From positions 8,938-72,937 of the IMG/VR virus record IMGVR_UViG_3300029554_000010: a DNA stretch of 64,000 nt; one strand, written 5' to 3'. Both the position numbers and the translations under genes were made by a program. This document shows positions 6,299 to 36,596 of the stretch, piece after piece; position 1 is the first letter of the stretch; each line of letters begins with the position of its first letter. The notes below the pieces were generated by a model that saw only the letters and a program-made list of their open reading frames with translations, was not told where the DNA came from and searched no databases. Source of the stretch: a virus.

Positions 6299-6580
6299 AT
6301 GATCAAATGTGAAGGCGGGAAAGTTGAATTAGAAGAAGATGCAAATAAGTTGCTTTCTGAATTAACCGCGATATGCAGGGGACTAAGAGTTTTCCTTGTG
6401 AAAGAAGGATATTCCAAGGAAAAAGCCGATGAACTTGTTTCTGAATCAGCTCAGATGGGGTTGTGGACAGACGAAAAAATACAAGAAGAACTTGACAGAT
6501 TAAGGACAGAAACGCTTAGAACGTTTGCGGAATTAATACTGGGGAGAAAGATTTTTGAAGGAGGAAAAGAGAATGATTAA
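6299..6580 (+). CDS. hypothetical protein, paralog A (MIKCEGGKVELEE...)
   Basis: shares an N-terminal MIKC start and a ...EEL motif (LWTDEKIQEELDRL in this ORF vs FWTEEELTKENNKL in 6555-6965) with the next ORF. Confidence 0.5.
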   Translation: MIKCEGGKVELEEDANKLLSELTAICRGLRVFLVKEGYSKEKADELVSESAQMGLWTDEKIQEELDRLRTETLRTFAELILGRKIFEGGKEND

Positions 6581-6965
6581 ATGCAATAAAAAAGGAGAAA
6601 TTACTTTTAAAGGAAATGTCCCGGATATTATGACTGATTTATCCATGATTGCAAGAACAACGCGAGAATTCTTCATGGAAAGAGGAATGTCAAAAGATGA
6701 AGCCGAAGAAGGAATTAAACATGCGGTAGAACTTGGATTCTGGACAGAAGAAGAGCTTACTAAAGAAAATAATAAATTGGTCAAGGAACTTATGAACTAC
6801 GAACTAGAAACTCTCGAAGAGAAATTTGATTTTCTGGCAGGGAGACTTACAGCTCTGGAAGCGGTTTTAAATGCTGACGATAGCACATTCATTGATAAAA
6901 AGTATGTAGCTGCGATCATGGGGATTAAATATTTCGAAGGGGATTCCGATAAGAAAGAAGAGTGA
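6555..6965 (+). CDS. hypothetical protein, paralog B (MIKCNKKGEITFK...)
   Basis: tandem paralog of 6299-6580; extra C-terminal coiled-coil segment. Confidence 0.5.
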   Translation: MKEEKRMIKCNKKGEITFKGNVPDIMTDLSMIARTTREFFMERGMSKDEAEEGIKHAVELGFWTEEELTKENNKLVKELMNYELETLEEKFDFLAGRLTALEAVLNADDSTFIDKKYVAAIMGIKYFEGDSDKKEE

Positions 6966-7029
6966 AACGCCCCGGAGGTGACGCAACACCTACCGGAGCA
7001 CGTATCTAACTTAATTAGGGTAAGTTAAA

Positions 7030-7068
7030 TACAGGATAAGTATAGCACACCTTCCTGTATTTGAAAAG
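7030..7068 (+). terminator. hairpin AATACAGGA...TCCTGTATT followed by T-rich sequence
   Basis: inverted repeat read directly, after the stop of 6555-6965. Confidence 0.4.
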
Positions 7069-7095
7069 AAAATTTATACCAGGAGGGCATTTTTT

Positions 7096-7257
7096 ATGTC
7101 TAAAATCACAAAACACACCGAAAACGTAACTAAAAACCAGAGTCTTGCAAGCGAAATCATCGCAGATCAGGTGGCAAAAACAAAACGTCTGGAAGTCGCA
7201 GTTGTAGCACTATCAGTAGCTTTGCTTGCAACAGCAACAACAAAAAGAAAGAAGTGA
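7096..7257 (+). CDS. small protein with a C-terminal TM helix
   Basis: 53 aa; RBS AGGAGGG; hydrophobic C-terminus. Confidence 0.35.
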   Translation: MSKITKHTENVTKNQSLASEIIADQVAKTKRLEVAVVALSVALLATATTKRKK

Positions 7258-8061: not shown

Positions 8062-10034
8062 AAACAGTAGAATTGAAACAGCTTAACATTGAAAACTACA
8101 AGAAGTTTGAGTCTGCGGAGTATCAGTTTGCACCACGAACGATGGTGTCCGGTAGGAACCGTCAGGGTAAAACAACGTTGATGGACGCATATTTTGATAC
8201 ACTGACCGGAAAGCTTGCAGACGGTACATCTCCGAATAATGTCAGAAGAAAAGAAGACGGAGAAGAAGTTGAGGGTGTCGTATCAAGAGAACTCACACTT
8301 CTGATTGATGGAGAGGAAACCGTGATCCGTAAGGAAACGAAGAAAGGTAAATCTTCCAGTACCACAAAATATCAGGTTGATGGGTTTGATTACAACCAGA
8401 CGAAGTATAAGGAATTTTTAAAAGGAATATCAGACTCAGAAACCATTATGATGTGTAGTAATGCCAGAGTATTCCTTAATGAACTTCGAAAATCAACAGC
8501 AAGTGCCAGAGTAATGCTTGAAAAGATGGCAGGGTTCAATGCGGATAAAGTATTACAGGACAATCCAGAAGTTTCGGAAATCATCAAGAATCATTCTGTC
8601 GAGGAAGTTGTGAAAAAACTCAATAGAGACAAAAAAGACTTCCAGAAGAAAATTGATGCCAAAAAGGTTGAAATTGATACCGTAAAGAAACAGGGAACAC
8701 CAGATTTTACCATTCTTGAAGAAAAGAAGAATGCCGTGCTGGATAAACTGAATGGTCTTCTTGAAAAAGAAAAGCTGCTAAATGAAACCAATAAAGCATA
8801 TGACGAGCTCTGCTACGAGATTACAGGTCTCAAGAAATCCAGAGATGCGATCATTTCAAATGCAGCAGAAGCATTACAGGAAGAAAAGAGAAAAATCGTT
8901 TCCTTATTAAGTGACAGGCGATTCAAGCAGAAACATGAAGAAGAAAATCTCCGAATTCTGGGAAATTTCCTTGCGACCGCTGAGAAACCAGAACGAATTC
9001 AGCAGAGAATTACGGTTTTGCAGGAGAAATATAAACAGACGTATGCGTCCACATTTGATGAAACAGCTTTAAATGCAATACAGAATGAAAAATTTGATCC
9101 TGAATCAGCTATTTGCCCGACCTGCGGACAGGCACTTCCGGAGGAACAGGTTGAACGTCTTAAAACTGAATTTGAACAGAAGAAACAGGAAAGAATCCAT
9201 GCAGAGTTTGCGAAAAAAGAGCAGTTTAAAGCAGACAAACAGCAGAAACTTAAAGACATTACAGAAGAAGGCAATTCCGAAGTAGCCAGAAGAAAAGAAG
9301 TTGAGGAAAAGCGCAAAGACATCGAATCGCAGATTGAGCAGACAAAGAAAAATATTTCCACTCTGGCATCTGAGATTGCGCAGAAAAATCAGGAATTAGA
9401 GAAGCTTCCGGCAGAGCCAGATATGTCTGGAAATGAAGAGTATCAGGCAGTTGTAGCAGAAATCCAGAAGAAACAGGAACAGCTTGACGGACTGACTAAT
9501 AATTCTGAGGAAAATGCAGCAGTTCAGGCAGAAAGAATGTCTGCTGAAAAGGAACTTACAGGAATCGAAATAAAAATTGAGATGGCAAAACAGGCAGTTC
9601 AGAAACAGACAGAAACACTTGAACAGCTGAACACAGAACAGAAAGAGTTAGGTCAGGAAGATTCCGATATTCAGCAGAAACTTGACATGTTGAAAGAATT
9701 TTCCATCAAAAAAAATCAGGCACTGGCAGAAGCTATCAATCCACTTTTCAAGCATTTTCAGTTTCAGTTTTTGGACTATACGCAGGACGGTGAACCGGTG
9801 GAAGTTTGCAAGATGATTTGTGACGGAATCGGATATTTTGATGGATTGAATCACTCTGATCAGATTCTATGCAATATTGACCTCGTGACTGGATTGCAGG
9901 AGCTGAACGGACTGAATCTTCCAATTTGGGTTGACGATGCGGAATCCGTGAATGAAGAACGATTCCCAAAGATGGAACAGCAGGTTATTTACTTGAAAGT
10001 ATCTGACAATGAGTTGACAGTGGGGGGATTTTAA
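8058..10034 (+). CDS. SbcC/Rad50/RecN-like ATPase with a long coiled coil and CxxC hook
   Basis: N-terminal Walker A GRNRQGKTT; extensive E/K/Q-rich coiled coil; CPTCGQALPEEQ zinc-hook-like motif; C-terminal Walker B-like IWVDDAES. Confidence 0.75.
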   Translation: MKTVELKQLNIENYKKFESAEYQFAPRTMVSGRNRQGKTTLMDAYFDTLTGKLADGTSPNNVRRKEDGEEVEGVVSRELTLLIDGEETVIRKETKKGKSSSTTKYQVDGFDYNQTKYKEFLKGISDSETIMMCSNARVFLNELRKSTASARVMLEKMAGFNADKVLQDNPEVSEIIKNHSVEEVVKKLNRDKKDFQKKIDAKKVEIDTVKKQGTPDFTILEEKKNAVLDKLNGLLEKEKLLNETNKAYDELCYEITGLKKSRDAIISNAAEALQEEKRKIVSLLSDRRFKQKHEEENLRILGNFLATAEKPERIQQRITVLQEKYKQTYASTFDETALNAIQNEKFDPESAICPTCGQALPEEQVERLKTEFEQKKQERIHAEFAKKEQFKADKQQKLKDITEEGNSEVARRKEVEEKRKDIESQIEQTKKNISTLASEIAQKNQELEKLPAEPDMSGNEEYQAVVAEIQKKQEQLDGLTNNSEENAAVQAERMSAEKELTGIEIKIEMAKQAVQKQTETLEQLNTEQKELGQEDSDIQQKLDMLKEFSIKKNQALAEAINPLFKHFQFQFLDYTQDGEPVEVCKMICDGIGYFDGLNHSDQILCNIDLVTGLQELNGLNLPIWVDDAESVNEERFPKMEQQVIYLKVSDNELTVGGF

Positions 10035-18821: not shown

Positions 18822-19712
18822 ATGGATTTAGAACAAAAAGCAATTGAGAGAATTCGACTTGCGTCTGATCTCTCGTTGAAACATTATAACAAACCACTTG
18901 TATGTGAGTATTCCGGTGGAAAGGATTCAGATGTACTTCTGGAATTGTTCAGAATATCTGGAATTCCGTTTGAGGTTCATAATTCACATACCACTGTTGA
19001 CGCGCCGCAGACAGTAAGGCATATCAAAAATGTGTTTTCAGAATTGGCAGACAATGGTATCAAATGCGAGATCGACTATCATGTACAGGAAAACGGAAAC
19101 CGTCTTACAATGTGGAATCTCATTCCCAGAAAGCTAATGCCACCGACCAGAATTGTTCGGTATTGCTGTTCAGAACTGAAAGAAGGTGGGAATCCTAACA
19201 GAATGATCGCAACAGGCGTTAGATGGTCTGAAAGCAGTAAGAGAAGCAACAGAAGCCCATTTGAAGTATTAGGGCAGACGGCAAGTAAAAGCATAGGTGT
19301 TTCTGATGAAAAAATGCTTATCACTGACAATGATAATACTAGAAGATTATTTGAAAATTGCCAAATGAAAGCAAAAACAGTAGTCAATCCGATAATTGAT
19401 TGGACAGATCAAAATATCTGGCAGTTCATTGGTGAGAAAGACATTCAGGTATGCGAACTGTATCAATACGGATATGATCGATTAGGCTGTTTGGGTTGTC
19501 CACTTGCATCAAAGAAGCAGAGGGAAAAGGAAATGTATGATTTTCCAAAGCACAAGCAAGCCTACATTCGTTCCTTTGACAGAATGCTTCAGGAGCGAAA
19601 GCAGCGCGGAAAAGATACAAAGTGGAGTTGTGGAGAAGAAGTTTATCTATGGTGGATGCAAGACAACAATATCGTTAGTCAGATGGAATTATCTGATTTT
19701 ATTGAGTATTAA
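18822..19712 (+). CDS. phosphoadenosine-phosphosulfate-reductase-family protein (PP-loop ATPase)
   Basis: PP-loop motif EYSGGKDSDVL; family often found in phage DNA-modification and anti-restriction contexts. Confidence 0.7.
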   Translation: MDLEQKAIERIRLASDLSLKHYNKPLVCEYSGGKDSDVLLELFRISGIPFEVHNSHTTVDAPQTVRHIKNVFSELADNGIKCEIDYHVQENGNRLTMWNLIPRKLMPPTRIVRYCCSELKEGGNPNRMIATGVRWSESSKRSNRSPFEVLGQTASKSIGVSDEKMLITDNDNTRRLFENCQMKAKTVVNPIIDWTDQNIWQFIGEKDIQVCELYQYGYDRLGCLGCPLASKKQREKEMYDFPKHKQAYIRSFDRMLQERKQRGKDTKWSCGEEVYLWWMQDNNIVSQMELSDFIEY

Positions 19713-30798: not shown

Positions 30799-31140
30799 TT
30801 ATAAAGCAGCATGCCGGGATATAATATAATAACCCAATGCCATTATAAAGCCTGTAAACGTGCCTAAAATCAATTTTATATATACAGTTGATAAAATACA
30901 CATGCAAACATATAAACGGTTGCAAAACGTCAAATAAGCGCTTACAAGGATAACGAAACCGGCAAGAACTGCATAAGCTGGACGGACTGCCAGAAAAACA
31001 GCGTGTAAAAATGGTTCGCAAATAAGACCGCCCGAAGCGATCCGGAATAGATGCAGCCGTAGACCTGGACAGAAACCAATCCGGCATTTATCCACATTGA
31101 CATATATAAACATAATACGCCCGTTATATTTTGCCGTCAA
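30799..31140 (-). CDS. possible small polytopic membrane protein
   Basis: strongly hydrophobic 113-aa ORF in an otherwise ORF-poor 0.9 kb region; could be spurious. Confidence 0.25.
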   Translation of the reverse strand: MTAKYNGRIMFIYVNVDKCRIGFCPGLRLHLFRIASGGLICEPFLHAVFLAVRPAYAVLAGFVILVSAYLTFCNRLYVCMCILSTVYIKLILGTFTGFIMALGYYIISRHAAL

Positions 31141-31316: not shown

Positions 31317-31694
31317 TTAATTATAAATACTATCAAAAGCGGGTTTGTATTCCGGATGTAACAGCACAAAGTCAACAACTTTGTTATATGCCCGGCTGCC
31401 GTCCTTCGTTTCATGATATTCTAAGTTGAAAATATCATGCAACTTTTTCACCAGCTCATAAAAAGCACAAGCTTTTTCTTTTTCTTTTCGGTCATAGACT
31501 TTTATGCACATCGCATGATAATTGCATTCTACAACAAGGCTTTTGTGTCTGGATAACTTAGACCGGCACCAATACATAAGATCATGTTCACCTATTTCAA
31601 AATCAAACACATACCCGGTAAGACCGTACATATATTTTGATTCTGTATATTTTAAGTTGTATTTTTTAGCGAAAGATATAACTGTTTTATTCAT
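31317..31694 (-). CDS. hypothetical protein
   Basis: minus-strand RBS GGAGGG before MNKTVISFAKKY. Confidence 0.45.
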   Translation of the reverse strand: MNKTVISFAKKYNLKYTESKYMYGLTGYVFDFEIGEHDLMYWCRSKLSRHKSLVVECNYHAMCIKVYDRKEKEKACAFYELVKKLHDIFNLEYHETKDGSRAYNKVVDFVLLHPEYKPAFDSIYN

Positions 31695-31752
31695 TTTTAG
31701 GCCCTCCAATTTAGGAAAACAGGCGGGAAAGCCCCGCCTGGAATTGTTTTAT

Positions 31753-31956
31753 TTAGTTCAAACAAGCGTTTATTTTTTCTTTCAGATGCGGGAACGCTTC
31801 ACAAATTTCTTGCACGCTGTCGGCGTAATAATCACCAACTATTTTGCCAAAAATTCTTATATTACCAGAATAAAAACAGCCAAGATCATTAAACCAAATA
31901 TCGAGCCCGGTTGCCTGTTCTTTTTTATCGTTGTACCACATGTCTATTTTGATCAT
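31753..31956 (-). CDS. hypothetical small protein
   Basis: 67 aa; a terminator-like GGCGGG..CCCGCC hairpin lies between it and the next gene. Confidence 0.4.
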   Translation of the reverse strand: MIKIDMWYNDKKEQATGLDIWFNDLGCFYSGNIRIFGKIVGDYYADSVQEICEAFPHLKEKINACLN

Positions 31957-32298
31957 TGTATAGCCCTCCTTTTTATGCTGCCATTAAAATAATTTTTATA
32001 ACATTTTCTTCCCAATCAAAGAAAGTATAATAATTATGCTCAAAATAATACTTTTCTTTTTCCAGATCATTTTTTTGAATCTGGGAACATATTTACAAGT
32101 GTTTTTGTCATTTCTGCGACTTTCTGGCGTTCTGACATTGTTAGCGCCTCCCCGTTAATATCCAACTAAAATATAATGAGCAATCAACAAAAATGGGAAA
32201 GAAGCAACCGCAAAGCCTAACAAGTAGGTTTTTACGGCATGAATAACTTTTCTTCGGTGGATTGCTTGCCACTGGGAATAGGTATATTTTTTCACGGT

Positions 32299-32694
32299 TC
32301 ATACCTCCATTTTTTTGTGTGCTTCGTCAAAATCTTCTTCGAGATTGTCCAGCACTTCAGAAATTGCGGAGCCTAATAAGTAACATCTAATAGAAACGTC
32401 AATAGATTCGAAATTATCATTCAGCCACCAGTCACACACTTGTTTTTTGCAATCAAATTCGCTAACCATTTCGTTAACAAGTTCTTTGTTACTGTTTACG
32501 TAGTTTTCAGCTGCGGCACGATTAAAGGTATAACTTCCGCTTGCATTACCAGTCACGTTGTCTTCTGTCCAAAGTTCATCATTCAATTTTTCTTCCAGTT
32601 CTTCCAGACTGTCAAAATCTTCGAAATTAATTTCACTGTCAATATAGTTTTTAACGTCTTCTTTTACTGCTTCCATGTAATTATATTTTGTCAT
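32299..32694 (-). CDS. highly acidic hypothetical protein
   Basis: 131 aa, D/E-rich. Confidence 0.45.
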   Translation of the reverse strand: MTKYNYMEAVKEDVKNYIDSEINFEDFDSLEELEEKLNDELWTEDNVTGNASGSYTFNRAAAENYVNSNKELVNEMVSEFDCKKQVCDWWLNDNFESIDVSIRCYLLGSAISEVLDNLEEDFDEAHKKMEV

Positions 32695-32913
32695 TGTTTT
32701 TTACCTTTGCCCCTGCTATAATGGGGCTACCTTTCATTTTTTTGTTGGGTGCCGGTTGTTTGTCTTGGTAGGATTGCAACCGGCTTTTTTATTTAGTCAT
32801 CCGCGAACTAGAATTTTTCAATTAATCGGATCCGGTATCTTATGTTTGAGTGGTTCAGGCGGTCCGGTTGTTTGTTTCTTGTGTTCCCTTCGTTGATATT
32901 ATAATACTACATA

Positions 32914-33337
32914 TAAGGCACAAAAGCAATATACATACTATACAAATATAAGGCACAGAATAAGAACATAAATTGTATAAAATGTATAAGGCACAAAAAT
33001 AGAAATATAACACTTCCTATTATATGTTAAGAAAAGAAAATAATACTTGAAAATAAGGCACAAAATATATATAATATAAATAACATAATATAAGGAGGGG
33101 AAACAATGCCAGAAGAAAGAAAGACAACAGATGCACAAAGAAAAGCTATATATAATTACGATGAAAAATTTGAGCGTGTCAATTGTAGATTCAAAATAGG
33201 CACAAAAGAAGCAATAACAAAAGCAGGATATAAAAGCATAAACGATTTTATCAAATTAGCTGTTGCAGAAAAATTGGAACGTGAAAAGAAAATACTTGAA
33301 TAAGGCACAAAATACTATTGACATATAAGGCACAAAA
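32914..33337 (+). repeat. iteron-like array: six direct copies of TAAGGCACA(A/G)AA flanking a small gene
   Basis: copies at 32914, 32949, 32987, 33054, 33301 and 33326, all in the same orientation and embedded in AT-rich DNA. Confidence 0.6.
33106..33303 (+). CDS. small putative DNA-binding protein bracketed by the iteron-like repeats
   Basis: 65 aa basic protein; RBS AAGGAGGGG. Confidence 0.45.
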   Translation: MPEERKTTDAQRKAIYNYDEKFERVNCRFKIGTKEAITKAGYKSINDFIKLAVAEKLEREKKILE

Positions 33338-33597
33338 CATTATAATTATAGTTGTAAGGAAGCAAAAACCTTATAGGCTATAGAAAGGAGAAAATATGGA
33401 AGATATGAAAGAATTTGTAGCATATGCAAGAAAACTTTTAAGAGTCATTAACAAGATCGAAAAATATCTTGAAAATGGCGAATCCGAAAAAGCTCTTGAG
33501 TTGGTCAGAGAGTTAAAAGAGGACACACAAAAAGACATCGAAGCATAAAACAAACGGGGCGAGCAATCGCCCCAAACAATAAAGGGAGGGTAAAAAA

Positions 33598-33921
33598 ATG
33601 AAAATGTATAAATTCAGAGGTTTTGGAGAAAAAGACACGCAGCATTTTAACGAATTACTTAGAAAAATCGGTGAAAGAATCAACAACGACACCGAGATCA
33701 TAGAAAAAGCGAAAGAAGTAAACAAAAAATATTTCCAGAAATTGCAGGAAATCGCAAGTAATCTGGAAAATGCAGAATTTGCCGGGAATCAAATTAAACG
33801 GCTCAACGATAGCACCGGCCGCTATATGTATATTAAAAATATCAAAGATGAAGAAGAAAAAATAGAATATGATGCAGAAATAGACCTTCTTACATGGTCA
33901 TTTACTTTACTAGAAATTTAA
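33598..33921 (+). CDS. hypothetical protein
   Basis: RBS AAGGGAGGG; 107 aa. Confidence 0.45.
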   Translation: MKMYKFRGFGEKDTQHFNELLRKIGERINNDTEIIEKAKEVNKKYFQKLQEIASNLENAEFAGNQIKRLNDSTGRYMYIKNIKDEEEKIEYDAEIDLLTWSFTLLEI

Positions 33922-33929
33922 CAAAAATA

Positions 33930-33959
33930 AGCCCTTTGGCAAATTCCAAGGGGCTTTTA
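33930..33959 (+). terminator. intrinsic terminator AGCCCTTTGG-loop-CCAAGGGGCT plus TTTT
   Basis: 10-bp stem followed by a T-run directly after the stop codon. Confidence 0.55.
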
Positions 33960-34591
33960 TAATGCTTTTTTGTGGCGGCTTTTAGGACAGGTGCAGAACT
34001 GCCGCCGAAGTCCTGACATAATTATTCATAGCACAACCCAGATAAAAAGTCAACGACATTTTTTACTTGACTTTTACGAATCGTTCTGTTATGTTCGATA
34101 TAACGAAGCCGACGGAACTCAGGAAGGGCAGGGCTGACAAAGCGGATCGTAACTAAATGCGAAAAAAATATAGCCAGATCATGCCGGATCAGATGCCGGA
34201 AGGTCTGGCTTTTTGTGTGTTCAAAATGCCCTATTATAATATTATATATATTAATATTATGGATTATGAATATCTATAATTATAGTTATTCCCTGTCCCT
34301 TCCTAGATTCCAGAGCTGAGTTGATTAATATAATATTGTATATAGTATATATAATATACATAGATATAGTATATGCTGTTATATGAGATTGACTAAAAGT
34401 TTTAAATTAATAGTTGACAGAATAACAACTTGTATGTTAATACTGTTAATAGAGATACAGATACAGACCGAAAGCGAGAACGAACCGCTGGAGGACTGAA
34501 CCGGTTAGCGACTGGACAACGAACCAGAGCCGACCGGCTTTTTTTATTTATAATGATTTAATAGATTAACGTTATAAAGTGAGGTGATACA

Positions 34592-35287
34592 GTGCAGAAT
34601 ACAAACAACGGCGTGTTAGATACGTTTAAACAGGACACAAAGAAATACTTAGATATATTTTGCGCTGAATATGGTATTGAAGACCTTATGAAAGCACCTC
34701 AGAACACATTTGAGTCAGCTCTTAGTTATGCAGGGGATCATGTATTTCTGAAGCCTGAAAACGTAACGCTCAAGTACAACAGACAGACTATATTAGATTG
34801 CGATAATGCAGAACTGATCAATTACATACTCGACTATTATATATTTATATGTGGCGTATATAACAAGGAGTCAAATATACAAGGGTTTGCTAAATATATT
34901 AAGATTAGTGAACAGACTATGTATAACTGGGTAAATGGAGAATATAAGACAAAGATATATATAGATACAGACGGCAATGTTATTAAGGATATACAGGAGT
35001 GGAAGTTGAATAAGAGAGGGGAGTATAGGGAAATAGCAAGCACAGCACACCTTGACCTAATCAAAAAATTAAATGCGAATGACGAACACTCACTTGCAAA
35101 CATTGGAATCAGTGATAAGAATAACACAGGTGTGGCAATGAAACTCAATTCTAAATTCGGATGGAACGCACCAAACGGACGGAGCGCAGAAGAGAACAAC
35201 GGAAAGCCAAAGCAGACAGCACAACAGATCGCGGACAAGTACAAGGACGTGTTGGAGCTTCCGGAGATGGAAAAGCCGGAGCTATAA
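34592..35287 (+). CDS. hypothetical protein
   Basis: 231 aa ORF with a GTG start after RBS GTGAGGTGA. Confidence 0.45.
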   Translation: MQNTNNGVLDTFKQDTKKYLDIFCAEYGIEDLMKAPQNTFESALSYAGDHVFLKPENVTLKYNRQTILDCDNAELINYILDYYIFICGVYNKESNIQGFAKYIKISEQTMYNWVNGEYKTKIYIDTDGNVIKDIQEWKLNKRGEYREIASTAHLDLIKKLNANDEHSLANIGISDKNNTGVAMKLNSKFGWNAPNGRSAEENNGKPKQTAQQIADKYKDVLELPEMEKPEL

Positions 35288-35634: not shown

Positions 35635-35868
35635 TTACGACTCTTCTCTAACATCATCAATATTAAATTTGACAATTACATCTGGTATGGCTTCAACCAC
35701 TATTTGGCATCCGAGGAAATCCAGAATAGTAATCAACTCATTAGCAGAAAGCGTTCCTCTGGAAAACTTATTTGCCAAAGCTTGTGGAGAAGTTCCAAGA
35801 TGTTCGGCAACTTGAACATTTGTTATTTTCTTCAGCTTCATGATTTGCTTAACTTTTTGAGATACCAT
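35635..35868 (-). CDS. XRE-family HTH regulator
   Basis: HTH segment ITNVQVAEHLGTSPQALANKFSRG. Confidence 0.65.
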   Translation of the reverse strand: MVSQKVKQIMKLKKITNVQVAEHLGTSPQALANKFSRGTLSANELITILDFLGCQIVVEAIPDVIVKFNIDDVREES

Positions 35869-36005
35869 GACAACACCTCCTATCTACATAATAAACGCAA
35901 ATGTTATAAAAATCAAATAAAATTCACTTAAACGTGTATTTTACTATTGATATAGCACACACTATGGTGTATAATTAAACCATAAAGAAACAGGAGCGTG
36001 TATAT

Positions 36006-36596
36006 ATGAAGGTAGGATATGTAAGGGTTTCAACAGTTGACCAGAACGAAGCAAGACAGATGGAAGCATTGAGAGAAGAGGGAGTTGATAGTATTTACAT
36101 GGATAAGAAATCCGGCAAAGACTTCAACCGTCCTGAGTACCAGAAGATGATTGCTTCTCTTCAAAAAGGTGATGTACTGGTAGTTCATTCGATTGACCGA
36201 CTTGGAAGAAACTATGAAGAGATTATTACTGAATGGAGAAAAATCACAAAAGAGATTGAAGCAGATATTATTGTACAAGATATGCCATTGCTCAATACTT
36301 CACAGAACAAGGATTTGACGGGAACCCTGATAGCAGATATTGTTTTGCAGCTTCTTTCATATGTAGCACAAAGAGAAAGGGAAAATATCCGTCAGCGTCA
36401 GAAAGAAGGTATTGCAATTGCAAAGGCTCAAGGCAAATATAAAGGACGTGCAAAGAAAGAGATTGACAAAAAACTTTTTGAAGATACTAAAGCCAGATGG
36501 CAGAATGGTGAGATTACAAAAATTCAATTTGCTGAGATCATTGGAGTTTCCAGGGGAACATTATACAAAATCTTAGGGGAGGAAAAGGATGATTGA
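36006..36596 (+). CDS. small serine recombinase, resolvase/invertase (Hin/Gin-like) with a C-terminal HTH
   Basis: MKVGYVRVSTVDQN catalytic serine motif, SIDRLGRN, C-terminal HTH IGVSRGTLYKIL. Confidence 0.8.
   Translation: MKVGYVRVSTVDQNEARQMEALREEGVDSIYMDKKSGKDFNRPEYQKMIASLQKGDVLVVHSIDRLGRNYEEIITEWRKITKEIEADIIVQDMPLLNTSQNKDLTGTLIADIVLQLLSYVAQRERENIRQRQKEGIAIAKAQGKYKGRAKKEIDKKLFEDTKARWQNGEITKIQFAEIIGVSRGTLYKILGEEKDD

Follow-up and report, generated by a model that had tools for sequence, protein, structure and literature searches.

Within a 64,000-nucleotide stretch of viral DNA (positions 8,938 to 72,937 of IMG/VR record IMGVR_UViG_3300029554_000010; hereafter the window, numbered from its first letter), six same-orientation copies of a short motif surround a gene for a 65-residue protein at 33106..33303 on the plus strand. 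The window is part of a temperate siphovirus-like phage with Lachnospiraceae as its host group. We consider it very likely that the repeats are binding sites for the protein whose gene they flank, a predicted ribbon-helix-helix (RHH) protein, and that, through copies lying inside three promoters, this protein represses its own gene together with two swappable sets of small genes.

The six exact matches to TAAGGCACARAA all lie on the plus strand, at 32914, 32949, 32987, 33054, 33301 and 33326, just where a preliminary description of this DNA had placed six 12-nt copies around the small gene, and the rest of the window contains no further exact match. Dinucleotide-preserving shuffles give a mean of 0.03 matches by chance, with none of 100 shuffles reaching six; when two mismatches are allowed, the remaining window yields 20 hits against 16.6 expected, which is background. 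The conserved block is actually about 15 nt long, (A)TATAAGGCACAAAA, and the gaps between successive copies measure 35, 38, 67, 247 and 25 bp. Numbered from left to right, three of the copies sit in promoter spacers: copy 1 (TAAGGCACAAAA, 32914..32925) in that of a leftward promoter, P_L; copy 4 (33054..33065) in that of P1, upstream of the RHH gene; and copy 6 (33326..33337) in that of P2, just beyond it. Copy 2 (TAAGGCACAGAA, 32949..32960), which lies 35-38 bp from copy 1 and has no promoter of its own, and copy 3 (32987..32998) would be auxiliary sites; in some relatives copy 3 is preceded, 12 nt upstream, by an inverted half-copy, TTGTGC. Copy 5 (33301..33312) begins within the RHH gene, its first three bases being the stop codon, and immediately precedes the -35 element of P2, with copy 6 following 25 bp downstream. 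A degenerate seventh copy inside the RHH open reading frame (ORF), at 33196 (ATAGGCACAAAA), was rejected as an operator, since it corresponds to conserved G-T-K codons that differ at synonymous sites in many relatives, and is probably incidental.

Within the surrounding 5 kb, the two sequences that best match a σ70/σA-type promoter both have one copy of the motif in their 17-nt spacer. P1 (33047..33075, plus strand) reads TTGAAA(33047)-17-TATAAT(33075), matches the consensus at 11 of 12 positions and lies 31 nt upstream of the RHH start codon, while P2 (33318..33346, plus strand) is a perfect 12/12 promoter, TTGACA(33318)-17-TATAAT(33346), that begins 15 nt past the RHH stop codon. The putative P_L (32901..32929, minus strand) was read from the sequence as a -35 element TTGCTT (32929..32924), a 17-nt spacer and a -10 element TATTAT (32906..32901), and faces a divergent block of small genes (32694..31317). 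A rightward promoter, 'P0', with its TATAAT at 32900 was rejected, because no fitting -35 element accompanies it and the minus strand gives a conserved promoter with a 17-nt spacer instead.

This arrangement is conserved. The 65-residue protein has 248 close homologues, and we retrieved 80 viral loci and 8 from Lachnospiraceae/Clostridia genome bins, at 58-100% protein identity, which represent phages and prophages of Lachnospiraceae/Clostridia and make up about 70 distinct loci. Nearly all of them carry copies of AAGGCACA on the gene strand at about -190, -155, -118, -51, +196 and +221 from the start codon, and an alignment of 62 distinct regions shows motif columns that are at least 90% conserved whereas the DNA between the copies drifts. 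Upstream copies are 35-38 bp apart in 110 of 113 gaps, the distance from copy 5 to copy 6 is 24-26 bp in every case (62/62), and in 65 of 68 regions copy 5 opens with the RHH stop codon. The promoters keep their places too: in 66 of 68 distinct regions P1 scores 9/12 or better with unchanged geometry, most often as TTGACA-17-TATAAT, and P2, as TTGACA-17-TATAxT, occurs at an identical offset in 60 of 64. On the minus strand, the promoter geometry around copy 1 is kept in 58 of 66 regions, and P_L, in the form TTG(C/T)TT-17-TAT(A/T)(G/A)T, reaches at least 8/12 in 62 of 66 and at least 9/12 in 23; the CAA that provides the TTG of its -35 element lies beyond the motif and is conserved as well. 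Copies 2, 3 and 5 showed no consistent promoter geometry when promoters were checked across 70 distinct regions.

The sites are, moreover, closely tied to the RHH gene. A 20-mer composite, TTGACATATAAGGCACAAAA, was found in 97 stretches among 2.9 million viral contigs, and 106 of its 109 matches adjoin this RHH gene, while 527 of 548 copies of AAGGCACAA lie inside the cassette when 833 kb of flanking DNA is included; the regulon would therefore be a local one. In one locus (L192, minus strand, ~3685), an orphan TTGACAtaTAAGGCACAAAA promoter-operator with a second copy of the motif 37 bp downstream precedes an unrelated gene, and no RHH gene was found in the 10-kb locus; it may reflect control in trans by a co-resident phage, or be a remnant. 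BLAST of 32700-34600 against phage and plasmid collections returned one irrelevant short match and nothing else, and the two matches from an Rfam scan of 30-37 kb, the only ones, were at chance level.

The gene at the centre of the array is preceded by a GGAGG ribosome-binding site and encodes a protein with a net charge of about +4. AlphaFold2, run with a 63-sequence alignment, modelled it with a predicted local distance difference test score (pLDDT) of 87.8 as a helix (9-21), an extended segment (22-31) and two further helices (33-39 and 45-64), with a predicted β-strand at about residues 23-29 (ERVNCRF). The predicted β-strand-helix-helix fold is that of the RHH (MetJ/Arc/CopG) superfamily. 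By sequence, the protein of the window has no match in Pfam, NCBIfam or among PDB sequences, 38 diverse relatives gave just single marginal matches to Arc, RHH_1 and PSK_trans_fac (E ~0.005), and one public source labels a homologue 'RHH protein, copG family'.

The strongest indirect sign that the adjacent protein would read the repeats comes from more distant members of the family. An exhaustive profile search gathered 382 representatives, and the distant ones have an altered predicted β-strand, in loci that keep the layout but carry another repeat. In known RHH complexes, such as that of Arc (Q9, N11, R13), alternate residues of the strand face the DNA. The family of the window has the strand ER(V/I)NCR(F/L) and the repeat (A)TATAAGGCACAAAA in six direct copies, three of them in promoter spacers. 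A strand K(V/I)LTRF (L090-L099) goes with ATATAACGCTAC, in four upstream copies 35-45 bp apart, the last of which lies between TTGACA and TATAAT, and KVLVRF (L100) goes with ATAACGATAGCGTTAT, a palindrome placed in a TTGACA…TATAAT promoter, whose half-site ATAACG is the one found in L090-L099 as well. NILVRF (L101-L102) is accompanied by two copies of a palindromic repeat, TAGGTATATACCTA, and NLSIRV (L104) by three upstream copies of ATATAGCATGTTATAT. When the comparison is reduced to positions 24, 26 and 28, R-N-R pairs with AAGGCACAAA, K-L-R with ATAACG (in L090-L099 and again in L100), N-L-R with GGTATATACC and N-S-R with TAGCATGTTA; strand and operator thus change together, in a qualitative comparison of five subfamilies. 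The window contains none of the motifs of the other subfamilies; conversely, the K(V/I)LTRF loci (L090-L099), to which the check for AAGGCACA was confined, lack that motif.

The genes that the promoters face differ from phage to phage. In the window, P2 leads into a gene of 50 residues (33396..33548, plus strand; cluster C13) and a second of 107 residues (33598..33921, plus strand), the latter absent from the closest relatives (L001-L003), neither with a family match, and a terminator-like hairpin follows at ~33932-33972. Relatives carry differing sets of small genes downstream of P2, with none at all in L001-L003, followed by a conserved gene of ~200-230 residues. Most of these cargo clusters have no Pfam or PHROG match. 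Among those that can be named, a homologue of the anti-CRISPR AcrIC5 (Pfam E 4.7e-20; PDB 7YHR E 1.4e-8) is present in 10 of the 80 viral loci, always downstream and in the same orientation, and in three of them (L024, L028 and L033) it directly follows a homologue of the 50-aa gene of the window. A divergent Cas5b-like gene (C55, 229 residues) lies about 1.55 kb downstream of the RHH gene in L011-L015 and is counted in 4-5 loci; it matches TIGR01895 at E 6.4e-19, below the family cutoff, and Pfam Cas_Cas5d weakly, with no PDB sequence match. Such a phage-borne Cas5b-like protein may be a decoy or an anti-CRISPR component. An ORF6N/ANT antirepressor (E 4e-27) is cargo in 3-5 relatives, and about 39 loci encode a second protein, whose RHH domain is Arc/HicB-like. 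In a variant of the cassette (L203-L206, the P0037 variant), a hicA-hicB pair is inserted at 6527-7195 between the P1 promoter-operator and the RHH gene, which, judged from its placement, would give a three-gene operon under the same operator.

On the other side, the leftward block of the window (31317..32694, minus strand) comprises small genes of 131, ~46-53, 67 and 130 residues that are presumably driven by P_L and have no family matches. A counterpart of the 131-aa gene is found in 11 loci, on the opposite strand and at -357 to -360, and the first leftward gene differs among relatives yet starts at a fixed offset. Between the start of this block and the array, at 32700..32795, lie two strong hairpins with T-runs on the plus strand, terminator-like on that strand (fold z-score -4.8). 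In the leftward transcript these hairpins would fold into a 5′ leader of about 200 nt; for some operons controlled by anti-CRISPR-associated (Aca) proteins, binding of the regulator to a structured 5′ leader has been described (bioRxiv 10.64898/2026.07.27.740549). At the far end of the block, a hydrophobic 113-aa ORF with a TTG start (30799-31140, minus strand) may, from its sequence, encode a small membrane protein.

We propose that the 65-aa protein is an RHH autorepressor and that the locus would serve as a self-sufficient hub for transcriptional control in a temperate phage of Lachnospiraceae, in which P1 would drive the repressor gene, P2 a variable accessory operon and the weaker P_L a second variable block of small genes. 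The mechanism that we infer, with its DNA binding, repression, timing and stoichiometry, would have RHH dimers bound in the spacers of these σA-type promoters exclude RNA polymerase, with copies 2, 3 and 5 adding cooperativity or raising the local repressor concentration. On entry into a cell free of repressor, all three promoters would fire until the repressor had built up and shut them off, giving a burst followed by silence; in a lysogen, the autoregulated P1 would set the repressor level and keep the cargo low.

Experiments have demonstrated such logic in three other systems. In the immI region of phage P22 (Arc/Mnt), the gene for an RHH repressor comes first in the transcript of a strong promoter that carries the operator between its -35 and -10 elements, and Arc controls the P22 antirepressor, limiting its expression to an early burst. 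The locus described here resembles immI in this placement of repressor gene and operator, in having a divergent promoter in the same control region and, in 3-5 relatives, in having an antirepressor as cargo. Arc, however, binds as a tetramer to one near-palindromic operator of 21 bp, unlike the sites here; the Pfam Arc family gives no significant match, and most of the cargo is something other than an antirepressor. A paper on Reg576 (PMC6294495) takes up Arc as well; Reg576 is the RHH repressor of the establishment genes of the Bacillus conjugative plasmid p576, which binds direct heptamer pairs at several promoters (PMC6294495, PMC8708921). The likeness to Reg576 extends to a small RHH autorepressor (here predicted) on a mobile element of Firmicutes, to directly oriented, asymmetric motifs that occur at several strong promoters in numbers differing from promoter to promoter, to targets that counter host defence (ArdC in p576; homologues of AcrIC5 and Cas5 in the relatives studied here) and to a proposed burst and shut-off on entry. 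Reg576 operators, however, are pairs of TTATCCC heptamers 2 bp apart that take two dimers and are placed ahead of the -35 element or close to the ribosome-binding site, whereas the locus here has single 12-15 bp sites in the -35/-10 spacer, 25-67 bp apart, and belongs to a phage rather than a plasmid. The two proteins showed no relationship in sequence, though no direct comparison was made.

The third system is that of the Aca proteins, which repress anti-CRISPR operons. Among them, the RHH-type Aca14 from Pasteurella multocida represses not only its own operon but also a neighbouring operon with genes for AcrIF6 and a Cas5f homologue (bioRxiv 10.64898/2026.07.27.740549). Aca14 and the protein described here are both RHH proteins of 65-66 residues with an N-terminal helix before the β-strand; both target their own and a neighbouring promoter (here a prediction) through sites between or over the promoter hexamers; and both are associated with operons that hold acr genes and a phage-borne Cas5 homologue, which here are found in the relatives, whose Cas5b-like gene parallels the Cas5f homologue beside AcrIF6 in the Aca14-regulated operon. 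Aca14 differs in having one AT-rich inverted repeat over the -10 element, a regulator at the end of the operon and a home in Proteobacteria, whereas the present cassette, from gut Clostridia, has six asymmetric same-orientation sites, three promoters of which one is divergent, and a regulator upstream of the cargo with a promoter of its own. An hhalign comparison of Aca14 (its sequence rebuilt from a supplementary table with one base restored) with the family profile gave a probability of 62.7% and E 7e-5 over 45 columns covering the N-terminal helix, the strand and helix A, and BLASTP was not significant; from these alignments, homology is no more than possible. As for the features by which Aca proteins are recognised, candidate acr genes lie in the locus in some relatives, with an AcrIC5 homologue in 10 of the 80 viral loci and the Cas5b-like gene in 4-5 (none in the window), and a predicted site lies in the spacer of P2, the promoter ahead of them. 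Given the AcrIC5 homologue, the Cas5b-like protein, the antirepressor and the HicAB pair among the cargo of the relatives, the protein would most likely regulate early accessory or anti-defence genes in the manner of an Aca protein, Reg576 or Arc. The autorepressor logic would thus be one already known from Reg576, Aca proteins and Arc, and what appears to differ is the layout of the array of spacer sites.

Several observations weigh against this reading, or against parts of it. All six sites share one orientation although P_L is divergent, and they are dispersed, single and asymmetric, whereas most RHH operators are adjacent repeats bound cooperatively. P_L, with a match of only 8/12 in the window and a putative start, is less well supported than P1 and P2. 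The covariation is qualitative and covers five subfamilies in which whole phages diverge jointly, so that another factor encoded nearby might conceivably account for it, and one locus (L089) has the same β-strand without nearby sites. As for anti-defence, AcrIC5 homologues are found in only 10 of the 80 relatives, and scans against family and structure databases by sequence recognised no anti-defence gene in the cargo of the window itself; no meaningful PDB match was obtained for that cargo, the 50-aa protein matching designed pentatricopeptide repeats only, probably through its composition.

The preliminary description had favoured a different function, seeing in the repeats the iterons of a plasmid-like replication or partition locus, and hence a phage-plasmid maintenance module or a secondary origin. 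As an origin, the locus would have the small protein or another initiator bind the repeats, with the AT-rich palindromic stretch at 34200-34450 as the unwinding element. Direct repeats in AT-rich DNA, a consensus DnaA box 1.8 kb away and the palindromic stretch 0.9 kb downstream do speak for it, and both of the latter features are present. The DnaA box (31088-31096), however, is a single copy inside a minus-strand ORF, the hydrophobic 113-aa frame that overlaps it, and the density of such boxes is at chance (12 hits to the relaxed TTWTNCACA against 10.4 expected), for which reason we rejected it as a sign of an origin. The AT-rich region is common to the closest relatives only, with cargo of varying length intervening, and was likewise rejected as a partner of the array, since the two are not co-conserved. 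Cumulative GC skew climbs steadily from 4 kb with a small dip at the strand switch at 31-33 kb and no extremum at the locus. Taken together, an iteron origin is extremely improbable because Pfam and PHROG scans of the window and of the relatives' cargo found no Rep-type initiator adjoining the array, the spacings (35, 38, 67, 247 and 25 bp) are unlike the regular head-to-tail units of ~20-22 bp of iterons, three copies are placed precisely in promoter spacers, DnaA boxes are at chance density, and the phage has its own DnaD-like/DnaC-like replication module at 25.7-27.4 kb, 6-7 kb away. A partition module, in which a ParG/ParR/ω-type RHH protein would bind the repeats as both centromere and operator in a plasmid prophage, is very unlikely. 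Such systems do combine a small RHH protein with repeats overlapping its own promoter, and here the fold is predicted, sites lie in P1 and binding is proposed. ParR, ParG and the ω (omega) repressor of pSM19035, however, use contiguous tandem units of 7-11 bp together with a ParA/ParM NTPase, unlike the dispersed sites here, and no ParA/ParM gene was found in the cassette, the annotated larger ORFs of the window or the cargo of the ~70 distinct relatives, in a scan of the 64-kb window that leaves about 16 kb of the phage outside. The neighbours are, besides, variable on both sides, and a large serine recombinase together with relatives located within bacterial contigs of 131-226 kb suggests integration.

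A type II toxin-antitoxin system would make the RHH protein an antitoxin, the repeats its operator and the small proteins downstream the toxin, and we give this very little credence: the downstream genes have their own consensus promoter, vary among relatives and are missing from L001-L003, none of them matches a toxin family, the RHH model has no C-terminal toxin-binding extension beyond helix 2, and the HicAB of the variant cassette is a complete pair on its own. It is just as improbable that something other than the adjacent RHH protein reads the repeats, be it a small terminase at packaging sites (pac/cos) or some other phage or host factor. Small terminases often do recognise arrays of direct repeats, and the conserved gene of ~200-230 residues after the cargo shows a weak small-terminase similarity. 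In the window this gene (34592-35287, plus strand; 231 residues, cluster C0), which follows the cargo in most relatives, has an HTH-like (helix-turn-helix) stretch and a sub-threshold similarity to P22 gp3 (GP3_package, 26.1 bits against a cutoff of 29.4), which leaves the small-terminase label uncertain; it lies about 9 kb from TerL, with an XRE regulator, a DNA invertase and other genes between. Against packaging, its distance from the array ranges over ~0.65-1.8 kb and TerL lies 6-11 kb further on, whereas the positions of the sites are fixed relative to the promoter hexamers and to the RHH gene, down to its stop codon, and the motif changes with the RHH β-strand. The evidence instead favours an autoregulated regulator with arrayed binding sites, which the preliminary description had listed as its alternative and which the operators in promoter spacers, the predicted RHH fold, the conserved array and the strand-linked change of the repeat all bear out.

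The cassette sits between the early and late regions of the phage. The early region encodes an antirepressor (4138), SSB, an SbcC-like protein and RecT, followed by a DnaD-like initiator (25676), a DnaC-like loader (26526), the large serine recombinase (28139) and DUF4417 (29550), and the late region TerL (44171), portal, major capsid and tape-measure proteins. The relatives that lie inside the 131-226 kb bacterial contigs suggest integrated prophages. Also in the early region is a 296-aa protein with a PAPS-reductase domain (18822-19712, plus strand); Figure S10 in the supplement of the Aca preprint depicts Aca-regulated operons with PAPS-reductase-type genes (bioRxiv 10.64898/2026.07.27.740549).

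Further features lie between the cargo and the structural genes. At 34067-34216 (plus strand), a unit devoid of ORFs runs from a promoter, TTGACT-17-TATGTT with an extended TG, to a terminator at 34195-34209, giving a transcript of ~110 nt; its fold z-score is only -1.7, and L006 and L012-L015 share its 3′ part (34172-34218) at 91% identity, within flanks that differ. Another ORF-less unit of about 100 nt (34446-34548, plus strand), with a promoter-like TTGACA at 34414 and a terminator at 34526-34541, lies upstream of the gene at 34592; it folds with z = -5.5 relative to shuffled sequences, has no Rfam match and could be a small RNA or a terminator-containing leader controlling the downstream gene. 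Between the cassette and the structural genes there is also a divergent pair (35635-36596), with an XRE/DUF6471 HTH regulator on the minus strand (35635-35868) and, on the plus strand, a small serine recombinase or DNA invertase (36006-36596; Resolvase E 2.5e-31).

An autoregulated RHH repressor would be unsurprising on its own; the useful part is the module. One false lead is removed, in that nothing at the locus points to a phage-plasmid or a second origin. The operator design is distinct, with single asymmetric spacer sites that point in one direction and fixed spacings of 35-38 and 25 bp, and the cassette is compact and easily recognised, occurring at 100 or more loci in viral contigs, mostly from human-gut metagenome studies, with fast-swapping small genes on both sides. 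It is quite possible, though here we are more tentative, that it represents an undescribed Aca-like family of RHH regulators in phages of gut Lachnospiraceae/Clostridia, one that uses dispersed same-orientation spacer sites at three promoters to control a bidirectional hypervariable anti-defence island. To our knowledge, phages of gut Clostridia have so far yielded very few anti-defence genes, and it was only in July 2026 that the first RHH-type Aca regulators were described (bioRxiv 10.64898/2026.07.27.740549); given both circumstances, the cassette could be used as bait for new ones. If it does represent such a family, the RHH gene together with TTGACA-N2-TAAGGCACAAAA-N3-TATAAT would provide an anchor for guilt by association, and the 50-aa and 107-aa proteins of the window, its leftward genes and dozens of cargo clusters of the relatives would become new anti-CRISPR or anti-defence candidates, with type I-B and I-C systems and other defences of gut Firmicutes as their candidate targets.

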